NCBI GenBank assembly: GCA_963771045.1
Contig: CAVYRW010000004.1
Coordinates: forward strand, 64,001-128,000
Source: Waddliaceae bacterium
Lineage (GTDB): Bacteria; Chlamydiota; Chlamydiia; Chlamydiales; SLFE01
Length of the DNA stretch: 64,000 nt
Reading direction: 5' to 3'
In this document: piece after piece, positions 46,123-55,632 of the stretch
Numbering within the stretch: the stretch's first letter is position 1
Layout of the letters: every line of letters starts with the position of its first letter
Notes under the pieces: generated by a model
The model's input: the letters and a program-made list of their open reading frames with translations, nothing else
Databases searched by the model: none
What the model was told of the DNA's origin: nothing
Translations under genes and position numbers: made by a program

Positions 46123-47489
46123 TGTAATGGTCCCCAAAATTAGGACCACATGCTAAGCTAATATCCTCCTGAAAATCGGAGGATAAAAATGACCCGTAAA
46201 CGTAGGAAATTCTCAGCTGAGTTCAAGCTCAAAGCTGTAACTGAAATCTTGAAAGGAGAAAAGACCGCTTCCCAATTAGCAGGCGAGCTTGGTGTTCACC
46301 CCGTGGTTCTATCCGAGTGGAAAAAGCACTTTCTGGAGGTAGGACCTCAAATCTTCGAAAAACCTAAAAAGGCATCAAAGGTAAATCAGGAAGAGAAAGA
46401 AAAGGCCGAATTGTTCGAGCAGATCGGTCGACTCAAGATGGAAAACGAATGGCTTAAAAAAAATTGAGGACCTGGATTTAAATGACCGACGAGCCCTCAT
46501 TGAACCATCTCATCCACACTTTTCTCAGAGAAAACAGTGTGAAATTCTCTCTTTGCACCGCTCTGGATTATATTATCAACCGGCAGAACCGGGTGAGGAC
46601 ACTCTCCGCCTCATGCGTGCAATCGATGAAGAATATCTTGAAAATCCTCACTATGGGAGGAGGCAAATGGGTGAAATAATGAGGGCTCGGGGGTTTGATG
46701 TGGGCAATAAGAAGATCAGATCACTGATGCGTCTGGTGGGATTAGAAGCTATTTACCCCAAACAAAACCTGAGCAAACCCAACAAAGAGCATAAAAAATA
46801 TCCCTATTTGCTCCGTGGATTGAAAATTGACCGACCCGATCAAACCTGGGCAGGAGATATCACCTATATCCCACTTCTGCACGGCTTTGGTTACCTTTTC
46901 GCGATCATTGACTGGTTTAGTCGTTATGTGATCGAGTGGGAGTTGTCCAATCTACTAGATAGCAGTTTTTGTGTTGAAGCACTTGATAGAGGTCTTGTCG
47001 ATACAAGACCCGAGATTTTCAACACAGATCAAGGGGTGCAATTCACAAGTTGCTGCTTTGTCGGCAGACTTGAAGAGAATGAGGTAAAAGTGAGCATGGA
47101 CGGAAAAGGGCGGGCTCTTGACAATGTATTCATTGAAAGGCTCTGGAGAAGCGTAAAGTATGAGAACGTTTATCCAAGAGGATATGAGACTCTGAAAGAA
47201 GTCCGTCAGGGACTGAAAGGCTATTTCAAGTACTACAATGAGAGAAGGCCTCATCAAGGGCTTGATTATCGAACTCCAGCTGAGGTATATTTTGCGAAGT
47301 AGTATCCAAAGCGCCGGCGCGCGCTCCCCCCATGGGGGGAGCAAGGCTTGTGCCTTCGGATATGGAAGCGAACTAGTACTCTGAGGTTAGAGAAGAAAAC
47401 TGTGAAATACAGAAAAAGGAACTTTTAACAACCAGAGGATGTTAGCTTAAGTTTTGGTGATTTTGGTCCTAAGGAAGGGACCCACCTCA
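46123..47489 (+). mobile_element. IS3 family element (orfA 46189-46467, orfB to 47302)
   Basis: TG..CA ends with imperfect 26-bp IR sharing TTAGGACCA; A8 slippery site at the orfA end; WAGDITY, NTDQGVQF, DNVFIERLW. Confidence 0.93.
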
Positions 47490-52315: not shown

Positions 52316-52436
52316 GAGAACTCTAAAAATAACTCATCAAGCATAACAAACTAATTTCAGAATGCCTACTGAAAAAGGTAAGCATTCAGCCATTGCCGTG
52401 AATTTATTATTTGAAAAATTTCAACGCGGAGGCGCT

Positions 52437-52548
52437 CAAAACAAATTAACGATGAAAACGATTTAACGATAGGAACGATAAAAGAAAAAGATTGAGATCT
52501 TGATTGATTATCCTTTATATCGTTACATCGTTCTTATCGTTTGTTTTG
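52437..52548. repeat. Inverted array of AACGAT units with 8-9 nt period
   Basis: AACGAT at 52448, 52457, 52465, 52474; ATCGTT at 52519, 52527, 52536; closed by CAAAACAAA / TTTGTTTTG. Confidence 0.75.
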
Positions 52549-52658
52549 TCTGGCCCGCTTTTCTCATAGATACTCCTGACATTTTGACATCCTTTAGGCG
52601 TTGTTGCATAAATCACCACTGAGACCACCGAGCTCACTGAGAGATTATGAGAGAGGAA

Positions 52659-53066
52659 TTAAATGATTAGACGCCTAATCCCATTTTTTAGAAGTTTTAC
52701 ATTGAAATTGATGAGCAAACCTCTGCCACCACCATTATGCTTAAGATAGGATAGAAGTTGGGCCTCATGAACAGGCAAGAGATTGGCCACAGATTTTATC
52801 TCCAAAATAACCTTATCTTCCACTATCATATCGATCCGGTAGCCTGAGTCTAGCTTTTTATCACGATAAATAATAGGTACTGGTATCTGCCGGTTAACTT
52901 TCAAACCCGCAAGGTTCAACTCGTAGCAAAGACAAGTTTCGTATGTCGATTCAAGCAAGCCTGGACCTAATCTTCGATGAACTTCAATCGCAGCACCTAT
53001 GATTTCCCCTGTTAAAAGGTCATTTCTTTTTTGGTTGGCTTCTTCAGTTGTGTGGGTACTAGTCAT
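52659..53066 (-). CDS. GxxExxY protein (PD-(D/E)XK-like)
   Basis: LGPGLLESTYETCL, YRIDMIVE, LEIKS, AQLLSYL, GLLINF. Confidence 0.93.
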   Translation of the reverse strand: MTSTHTTEEANQKRNDLLTGEIIGAAIEVHRRLGPGLLESTYETCLCYELNLAGLKVNRQIPVPIIYRDKKLDSGYRIDMIVEDKVILEIKSVANLLPVHEAQLLSYLKHNGGGRGLLINFNVKLLKNGIRRLII

Positions 53067-53150
53067 CTTTTCTCCAAAAAGGGCGAATGCGAGCTTGCCG
53101 ACAAATACCTAATACTCTAATTTTTAGTTGCAACAAATTGGAGGATCAAG

Positions 53151-54094
53151 ATGAAGGCAAAATATCGCATTCGCAACTGGAACGACTATAACAAATCTCT
53201 TATTCAAAGGGGAAGCATAACTGTTTGGTTTTCTGAAGATGCTATCAATAAGTGGATGGCTCCAAAAGAAATAGGAAAAAAGGGGCGTCCAAAACTCTAT
53301 TCTGATGACGCTATTCTCACCGCGCTCATTATTCGATCGGTTTTTCATCTTCCATTGAGAGCACTCGAAGGATTTTTGACATCTCTTGTTATGATTTTAT
53401 CTGTTGGTTTATCGATTCCTTCTTATACTCAAATTTGTCGGAGAGCTAAGTTGTTGGGGCAAGAGTTGAAGAAACTTTCGAAAAAAAAGTCACCAATATT
53501 GTAATCGATTCAACCGGTTTGAAAGTGTACGGAGAGGGTGAATGGAAAGTTAGGCAGCATGGAATCAGTAAAAGGCGAACATGGAGAAAGCTCCATCTGG
53601 CAGTCTGCCCTGACTCTCACGAAATTATTTTCGAAATTCTTACTGAAAATAACGTTGCAGATTGTGAAGTGTATCCAAAACTTCTCGAGGTAATGCCGAA
53701 ATCAGTTAAGCGCACATATGGAGATGGGGCTTATGATACTAAGCGATGCTATGCTGCAAATGTAGTTCACGGCTCAATTCCTATTATTCCACCCAATAGG
53801 AATGCTGTTTTTCGAGAAAACATATCTCCTTCTTGGAAGATGCGGAATATCAGTTTGCTGGAAATTTCAGGTTTAGGAGGTGATGATGATGCAAGAAAAT
53901 TATGGAAAAAGTTGAAAGGTTATCATCGTCGATCACTTGCAGAAACAGCCATGTTTAGATTTAAACGATTCTTTGGAAATGATTTAAGAAGTAGAACTCT
54001 GGAAACCCAAAGGGCTGAATCAAGGGCAAAATGTGAAGCACTAAATATAATGACAAAGCTGGGAATGCCTGAAAGTGAATTAATAGCAGCTTAA
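53151..54094 (+). CDS. IS903-group transposase (frameshift at the A8 run near 53481)
   Basis: YRIRNWNDYNKSL, IDSTGLKVYGEGEW, RRTWRKLHL, DGAYD, YHRRSLAET. Confidence 0.92.
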
Positions 54095-54297
54095 ATCAAA
54101 TCTCTCATATTCTCTCTGTGCGCTCTTGTGAGCTCTGTGGTTAATTACGCAACAAAGCCGGGACGACTACTTAGTTCGAGCAATATACTCCCAAATAATA
54201 ATATTCTATTTTAATTAATTATTTTATAATACTTAAACTATTGACAAAATAACTATTTTTGTAATATGCTAATATAATTGTAAAATTAGGAGTAATT

Positions 54298-55383
54298 ATG
54301 ATAAGAGATATAAACCAATCATATGCTATTACGAAGGACTTAGAGGCGCTTTCCAGAAAAGATACTGATTTGATTATCAAAGACTCAAAATCTTTTTGGG
54401 CTATATTTTGCAAAGCCTACAGCGATTTGCCTAATACAGATAAGGGGGATTCGGCACGTTTTACAGCAACTATTTTAGATAACAAACTCACTATAAAAGG
54501 GAATAAAAGTTCAATCGAAGCTATCAAGAAAGTTATAGAGTTCATAAGGAAAAGTTTTGAAAGAGATTATAAGGATAAGCAAGAGTCAACATTTATTCTA
54601 ATTCCTGATTATGGTAACTACTTCTATCGTCGACCATCTCGTGACCCGATTCATTTAGATGATCAATATAAACATTATTATCCTGATTCTATTACAAAGC
54701 AGTTGTTTGACCAGTCTATTAGTCCTTGTATGAAAGATTTTTCTCGATCCCTCGGGGCTATTTGTACTCGGAAAGTGACAATACAATTGATTGATCGTAT
54801 GAACAATTGGGATTCTTTTGGAGCAAAAGAGAGAGTTCATGCTTTTAAATTTGATTGGTCTCAAGGCTTAAATCTTGTTTTTCCTATTACCCCTTTACTC
54901 ATAAATAAAGAAAATCCCCTCTATTCACTCTATCAAAAACAAAAGAAATGCGACTTGACATTGTCTGCTAAAGGCGGAGAAACCGTAAAAGTTCACAGTC
55001 TTGTTCTTTATGCTAGTGCCGGAAAAGTTATGAGGGCTTTGCTTGACGCCCAAATGAAAGAATCAATCGAGAAGGTATTCGAATTGAAGGAATTTACACT
55101 AAGCACGGTAAAAGCTTTTGCCGAGTTTTGCTACCTGGGAACCGAGGGTATTTCACAAAAATCAATATGGAATAATGAAATTGACTTAATCGAACTGTTC
55201 AAAATGGCACATTTGTTTCAATATAAAGACCTTATTGACCACTGCACCAACATGATTGCCTTATTTTCTTCCAGACTAGAACTTGAAGATATCAAATATC
55301 TGTCGGAGAAATATGATAACGAACATTTAAAGCAGCTTCATGACCACCTAGCCAAAAAAAACGAAGAAAAAAAGGATGAGTAA
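54298..55383 (+). CDS. BTB/POZ domain protein (eukaryote-like)
   Basis: C-terminal CDLTL..VHSLVL..MKES..F.EFCYLG pattern. Confidence 0.8.
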   Translation: MIRDINQSYAITKDLEALSRKDTDLIIKDSKSFWAIFCKAYSDLPNTDKGDSARFTATILDNKLTIKGNKSSIEAIKKVIEFIRKSFERDYKDKQESTFILIPDYGNYFYRRPSRDPIHLDDQYKHYYPDSITKQLFDQSISPCMKDFSRSLGAICTRKVTIQLIDRMNNWDSFGAKERVHAFKFDWSQGLNLVFPITPLLINKENPLYSLYQKQKKCDLTLSAKGGETVKVHSLVLYASAGKVMRALLDAQMKESIEKVFELKEFTLSTVKAFAEFCYLGTEGISQKSIWNNEIDLIELFKMAHLFQYKDLIDHCTNMIALFSSRLELEDIKYLSEKYDNEHLKQLHDHLAKKNEEKKDE

Positions 55384-55456
55384 GAGAACTAACCCGGATA
55401 CCTCACCGCAACCGGTGAGCAATCAGGGTCTTAGAGTTATCTCACCGAATACTTAC

Positions 55457-55622
55457 GAGCCACTTGCTTTAGCTCCGACAAAACCGATTTTTTGAGCTAT
55501 TTTGCCGAGATTTGCCAGTTGGCGCAAATTCACATACTCTTTAGAGTAGGGAATTTGCGCCAACTGGCAAAGGTCGGTGAAAGAGCCAAAAAGCGGTCTG
55601 TCGGAGCTAAAGCAAGTGGCTC
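55457..55622. repeat. 166-bp palindromic MITE-like element
   Basis: GAGCCACTTGCTTTAGCTCCGACA terminal IR; inner TTTGCCAGTTGGCGCAAATTC IR; TTAC direct repeat on both flanks. Confidence 0.85.
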
Positions 55623-55632
55623 TTACCTGAAA

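Follow-up and report, generated by a model that had tools for sequence, protein, structure and literature searches.

A 1.56-kb IS903-group element from a Waddliaceae bacterium carries a GxxExxY-family gene and paired inverted arrays

Results

We analysed a window of 64,000 nucleotides from a Waddliaceae bacterium (contig CAVYRW010000004.1, positions 64,001 to 128,000). At 52597..54159 on the plus strand it contains an element of 1563 bp, one base shorter than the other 15 copies in the same genome (1564 bp). The element starts with an 18-bp terminal inverted repeat (IR; 52597..52614, plus strand; 16/18 identical to the IR of IS903B), followed by a left array (52615..52654, plus strand) of three 9-nt units (52615-52641) and a purine-rich tail. 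A GxxExxY / PDDEXK_3 gene encoding 135 aa is located on the minus strand at 52659..53066, and a gap of 84 bp (53067..53150) separates its start from that of a divergent IS5-family, IS903-group DDE transposase gene (53151..54094, plus strand), which is frameshifted at this copy. The right end is formed by an array inverted with respect to the left one (54101..54141, minus strand; three 9-10-nt units at 54114-54141 plus a tail) and a second 18-bp IR (54142..54159, minus strand; 14/18 identical to IS903B). The ends, arrays and both genes reported in a first-pass annotation of this DNA could all be re-located at the same coordinates, and the inverted match between the ends, estimated there at about 60 bp, measured 59 columns at 79.7% identity (E 4.5e-6). 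Read on the sense strand of the GxxExxY gene, the left array corresponds to the downstream array typical of free GxxExxY cassettes. The intergenic gap retains a TTGCC...T-rich motif which also precedes the transposase gene of plain sister elements and represents a putative promoter. A sigma-70 promoter scan returned 8 sites compared with 5.6 expected, none of them within the divergent gap.

The intact transposase of 314 aa, encoded by 15 of the 16 copies, scored 289 bits against NF033579 (cut-off 140) and is 44% identical to the IS903B transposase over 99% of its length. D120, D192 and E265, which we take to be the catalytic triad, align with the D, D and E of IS903B. Judged by its transposase, D-D-E residues, IRs and 9-bp target duplications, the element is a member of the IS903 group of the IS5 family. 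Simple members would measure about 1.05 kb with the transposase as sole long gene; with 1564 bp and two genes, the element was therefore filed as a passenger-carrying derivative. The IS903-type assignment of the first-pass annotation held, but the frameshift had been overlooked. At the studied copy alone, the transposase is split into ORFs of 117 and 191 aa, with the A-run at 53481-53488 being one base shorter. The longer A-run was present in all four public runs, and among the listed contigs none spans both the A-run and the flank of the studied copy. A real mutation is mildly favoured over an assembly error because nine IS256-type copies show no gaps. Programmed frameshifting was ruled out, as 15/16 copies are in frame.

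The source genome (G000) holds 16 full copies that share both boundaries to the base, differ from one another at only 0-4 sites and all carry the GxxExxY passenger in intact form. Perfect 9-bp target duplications, each of different sequence, were directly seen at 12 of these copies and a 13th was found behind a nested IS256-type insertion. A table in PMC3281130 lists 9-bp duplications for IS903-group members. Contig depth steps at 52597 and 54159 in four of four public runs, and in three of them loose ends of other flanks occur at these positions. Since 16 full copies share their boundaries and depth steps are seen in public runs, the pattern is not due to chance. Boundaries, copy number, duplications and transposase class could be read directly from the copies, and near-identical copies at different sites point to transposition of the unit. 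The genome search suggested in the first-pass annotation thus returned what its proposal of a passenger-carrying IS had called for, namely the same boundaries and passenger in 16/16 copies and 9-bp duplications at 13 sites. Copies that begin between 53067 and 53150 and lack a GxxExxY gene had been named there as counter-evidence; the sole copy starting within the gap (C4:997659-998663) is devoid of both IRs and is a remnant. A composite transposon was ruled out, given one transposase per unit and common ends in 16 copies. These shared ends also rule out a GxxExxY gene merely adjoining an ordinary IS.

The earlier remark that no target duplication is visible applies to the studied copy and two others but not to the remaining 13. 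At the studied copy, the sequence beyond the right end is not the continuation of the left flank as seen at an unoccupied paralogous site on contig C3, and the missing duplication consequently fits an adjacent deletion. Adjacent deletions are reported as common for IS903 (PMC11708052). Reciprocal recombination between copies was rejected as the cause of the absent duplications, as no 9-mer matching any of the three copies was found at the other listed ends. The 16 insertion sites are AT-rich (GC 0.23-0.43 compared with about 0.45) and 14 of them lie outside long open frames. Two of the nine IS256-type copies are themselves inserted in elements of the GxxExxY-IS family (C4:1701314-1704285 and C4:790462-793433). 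The host element at the former site is a hybrid whose left part belongs to the main family and whose remainder belongs to a sibling at 74-83%, with its 9-bp duplication kept.

Further repeats and genes surround the studied copy. Directly left of it, at 52434-52571, a gene-less foldback of AACGAT-type units is found, which occurs twice in the genome and matches the arrays around another GxxExxY cassette class (L282, E 8e-9). A second palindrome, uninterrupted at the corresponding position in genome G249, is split within its left arm by this foldback, resulting in nested foldbacks. The product of a gene at 54298-55383 measures 361 aa, contains a BTB/POZ domain of eukaryote-like type and is possibly host-directed; both this gene and the IS are absent from the matching G249 site. 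Positions 55454-55625 are occupied by a palindromic repeat family with 15 BLAST matches in the source genome and many in G249, and an IS3-family element (HTH_Tnp_1 and rve ORFs) is located at 46189-47302.

The passenger protein is a clear member of the GxxExxY family, scoring 148 bits against TIGR04256 (cut-off 35) and 143 bits against PF13366 (cut-off 22). E39, E89, K91, Q103 and Y107 are invariant across 110 homologues and D79 is at least 90% conserved. The resulting layout of E39, D79, E89-x-K91 and Q103xxxY107 follows the PD-(D/E)XK pattern, in which E39, D79, E89 and K91 would be catalytic, while the QxxxY motif is presumably that of RecB/Cas4-type nucleases. The structure model is of middling quality (pLDDT 66), and neither a Foldseek search with this model (E<=0.001) nor a sequence search for a relative of solved structure returned a match. 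Fold comparison gave weak similarities (best Z about 5) to restriction enzymes, Hjc and splicing endonucleases, including R.SwaI (Z 4.8, rmsd 3.6, 104 aligned) and Hjc (Z 4.3, rmsd 4.0, 85 aligned), with unrelated chains scoring equally high. In the phylum, 154 of 400 genomes contained a member of the family, which was likewise found in 8000 of 8000 scored candidates of the homologue search. It is listed as of unknown function and with multiple transfers in a table row of PMC3424549, and the mention in PMC8934634 is a passing one.

In the three closest pairs (G000 compared with L053, L162 and L163), the passenger showed a pN of about 0.08 and a pS of 0.59-0.74, i.e. a pN/pS of about 0.1, and reading frames were intact in six of the seven lineages compared. 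The L182 transposase was omitted from both the dN/dS analysis and the transposase tree because its best segment fell below the length filter. As judged from these substitution ratios, the passenger gene is under strong purifying selection. The gene could alternatively be neutral cargo, with the second array as a passive by-product of conversion between the two ends, but the low pN/pS and the intact frames largely refute that the gene has been neutral during the history of the clade, and we regard this explanation as very improbable.

Purifying selection of this strength is also in line with the passenger being a toxic or defensive nuclease, either as addiction module or against phages, that protects the element or its host and for which the arrays would act as control sites or RNA structure. 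The spread of the element over host families, including a 100% identical element between flanks that are only 91-92% alike, fits such a role as well. However, the element has no partner gene and deleted as well as truncated derivatives are common. Further, an RNA stem formed by one strand was rejected because mismatches in the stems of free cassettes show no G-T strand bias (83 vs 74, p=0.52); the G-T mismatches at the IS ends (7 vs 1) are too few to weigh and a whole-strand RNA fold omitted the right array. Protection by a toxic or defensive nuclease thus appears rather improbable.

To place the arrays, we compared 90 loci of the phylum chosen by GxxExxY score alone, consisting of 30 returned loci and 60 of the listed matches, the latter with flanks of about 0.5 kb. 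Using an inverted-repeat score of 18 or more as threshold for bracketing, an inverted repeat brackets the gene at 59 of 89 scorable loci, although a few of the high scores may reflect other long repeats. The corresponding values were 5% for cross-locus pairs and 10/89 for the direct orientation. An IS903-type transposase was present in the stretch fetched at only 2 of the 90 loci, and free cassettes bear the same arrays without any IS. As GxxExxY loci mostly lack an IS903-type transposase in the stretch fetched and plain sister elements are array-less, this comparison assigns the inner 9-nt arrays to GxxExxY cassettes and not to IS903. The earlier statement that inverted arrays often flank GxxExxY genes was therefore well founded. 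The idea that the IS reveals how GxxExxY cassettes usually move is not supported, since 88/90 loci had no IS903-type transposase in the stretch fetched and the proposed survey for adjoining IS903-group transposases yielded just the two. About four stand-alone arrays were counted by eye in the source genome despite 16 gene copies, so the GxxExxY protein is not visibly spreading arrays there. A genome-wide scan, whose pattern was too loose, gave 41 matches outside the elements compared with about 33 expected.

We then asked how similar the two arrays of one element are, using seven elements with both ends (5040 pairings; the ends of the G349 element were drawn from two copies). Identity between the left and right arrays of the same element was 0.79 while cross pairings gave 0.70, left-left pairings 0.72 and right-right pairings 0.68 (p=0.0006). 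The terminal IRs themselves showed no own-end excess in this test. The comparison shows that left and right arrays evolve in concert. L163 provides the clearest example, in which a 40-nt tract is identical at both ends and differs from the left array of G000 by 3 mismatches; its GxxExxY gene is 87% identical to that of G000, yet its transposase is distant (71%). This metagenome contig has a partial self-duplication beyond the right end and could be chimeric. Passive conversion in which the nuclease has no role could also explain the concerted arrays, because in only 3/7 elements does the left end match its own right end best, and in plain sisters (n=23) the ends of one element are likewise slightly more alike than those of different elements (0.547 vs 0.522, p=0.01). 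Some plain sisters (L063, L064) also copy sub-terminal features to both ends, and for an IS5-family element, recombination between the two ends accompanied by conversion has been published (PMC3004938). These points favour the by-product part of the neutral-cargo explanation.

The composite layout was traced across 190 transposase loci, some of which were fetched twice. Among the 168 sister transposases below 64% identity, two had a GxxExxY gene and 142 had a left IR within 200 bp, but in none were at least two array units counted downstream of the transposase. At 64% identity or above, GxxExxY was present at 16 of 22 loci and the right array at 18 of 22; removal of repeats left 14 lineages, of which 12 are composite while the right end of the other 2 is plain. 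In the transposase tree (FastTree), a group at 87% contains 13 rows that are composite or derived, and in a quick GxxExxY tree the IS-borne genes group at 97% SH-aLRT, with the free cassette L029 inside this clade and the IS-borne L173 outside. On the basis of these trees, the composite is a clade of at least 12 lineages and one main capture of the cassette is likely. Composites or their derivatives occur under four family codes (G000 and G249, f1; G242, f3; G349, f43; G285 and G272, f12) and on metagenome contigs without family assignment. The element is 99-100% identical in G249 compared with 91-92% for the neighbouring chromosome and was also found in runs on salt-marsh and soil samples from several studies (X1, X4, X5, X20), for which reasons recent horizontal spread is likely. 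RNA runs were not among the listed carriers. Internally deleted and miniature derivatives of about 0.2, 0.6 and 0.4 kb (L320 on G349:C9, L243 and L244, respectively) keep IR and array at both ends.

IS5-family elements took up GxxExxY genes at least two more times, as judged from distinct layouts and positions in the tree, and L173 may represent another capture. L170:5-1861 is an IS903-group element in which GxxExxY lies on the transposase strand and is followed by a foldback array pair, the IS ends being plain. The G335 element (L247-L254) is another IS5-family element (NF033580) of 1.4 kb, flanked by TTAG-like sites, with a whole GxxExxY cassette including both arrays downstream of the transposase; it has at least 7 near-full copies, in some of which the GxxExxY gene looks decayed.

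These comparisons bear on the possibility that the element has domesticated GxxExxY as an accessory factor for transposition. The protein would raise or regulate transposition either by pairing the ends through binding to the sub-terminal arrays or by processing intermediates of the donor or cointegrate type. Both IRs are adjoined by arrays, a position expected for sites that bridge the ends, and gene and arrays are maintained while synonymous sites saturate. In the source genome, the composite has reached 16 full copies compared with about 5 for the plain IS903-group family. Across genomes, IS5-family elements have acquired the gene at least three times. Nevertheless, plain sisters are common and also have target duplications, the arrays of G335 and L170 are not located at the IS ends, and the spacing between IR and array ranges from 0 to about 10 nt among lineages, a poor fit to a joint protein complex. 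We consider an accessory role unlikely, albeit less so than the two explanations discussed above.

Discussion

Our preferred explanation, to which we assign a probability of roughly 60%, is that an ancestral IS903-group IS likely captured a selfish GxxExxY cassette, that the DDE transposase likely moves the resulting unit and that the predicted nuclease likely acts on the paired arrays belonging to it by binding or nicking them. In the outer layer of this arrangement, the DDE transposase would move the whole unit through the outer IRs. The 9-bp footprint can be ascribed to the DDE enzyme, with GxxExxY being dispensable for it, because plain sisters as well as the internally deleted derivatives L243 and L244, which are without an intact GxxExxY gene, show 9-bp duplications. 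The cassette would have entered a plain element of about 1.05 kb between its left IR and the transposase promoter and would then have lost its own upstream array. The right end may subsequently have gained a copy of the remaining array through end-to-end recombination or conversion. This would have restored the cassette layout of array, gene and inverted array, with the transposase now within the loop. A predicted nuclease with such an activity on paired arrays would account for the retention of the gene and of both arrays; selection on the gene together with the upkeep of paired arrays suggests that the GxxExxY protein acts on the arrays. An active nuclease with the arrays as its substrate is what we infer from these patterns.

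A bolder reading, which is speculative and which we hold to be unlikely, assumes that very small elements bounded by arrays form a widespread class not yet described, and that GxxExxY is the enzyme which mobilises them. In the present case, one of these elements would be fused with an IS903 into a two-enzyme transposon whose ends are double sites, with the IR outside and the array inside. The putative nuclease would itself convert the distant array to the sequence fitting the resident gene and would assist in pairing or processing the ends.

GxxExxY genes are very common and belong to a family of unknown function, for which the element could serve as a handy test system. Within 1.56 kb it combines the gene and its two arrays with a transposase of a standard type that can be assayed, and it shows natural signs of recent movement. 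Owing to this compactness, the substrate of the protein and its effect on transposition are directly testable by placing a mini-IS in a laboratory strain. More broadly, the element appears to be a case of one selfish unit absorbing another down to its end sequences, with capture having occurred more than once.

A full-text search on GxxExxY, IS903 passengers, chlamydial IS903 and repeat-flanked cassettes, with ISfinder and most subscription papers outside its scope, found no description of the element. The same literature yielded no IS903-group transporter IS with a GxxExxY passenger, although an ISfinder entry is possible. The IS903 group, the transporter IS concept and the GxxExxY family are each already known.

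With IS903 and IS903B, the element shares a 44% identical transposase with aligned D-D-E residues, 18-bp IRs matching at 14-16 of 18 positions and 9-bp duplications. It differs from IS903B in length (1564 bp compared with 1057 bp), in its second, divergent gene and in the array of about 40 bp inside each IR. Described transporter IS mostly belong to the IS1595, IS481 and IS66 families. Like them, the element combines a single transposase and a single pair of IRs with a passenger that is moved along, but here the passenger brings its own inverted arrays, which are fused to both IS ends. The term transporter IS (tIS) is used as in PMC9330008, for IS derivatives with passenger genes. Compared with the GxxExxY/PDDEXK_3 family (TIGR04256, PF13366), of which its protein is a clear member, the element differs in placing a transposase inside the array pair, whereas most members lie between arrays without one. 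Finally, the system is reminiscent of REP/REPIN sequences, which go with RAYT, an HUH enzyme: in both cases a small enzyme gene is tied to short inverted repeats and gene-less foldback derivatives are found nearby. In contrast to RAYT, however, GxxExxY has a PD-(D/E)XK motif, and movement here leaves a 9-bp DDE footprint.
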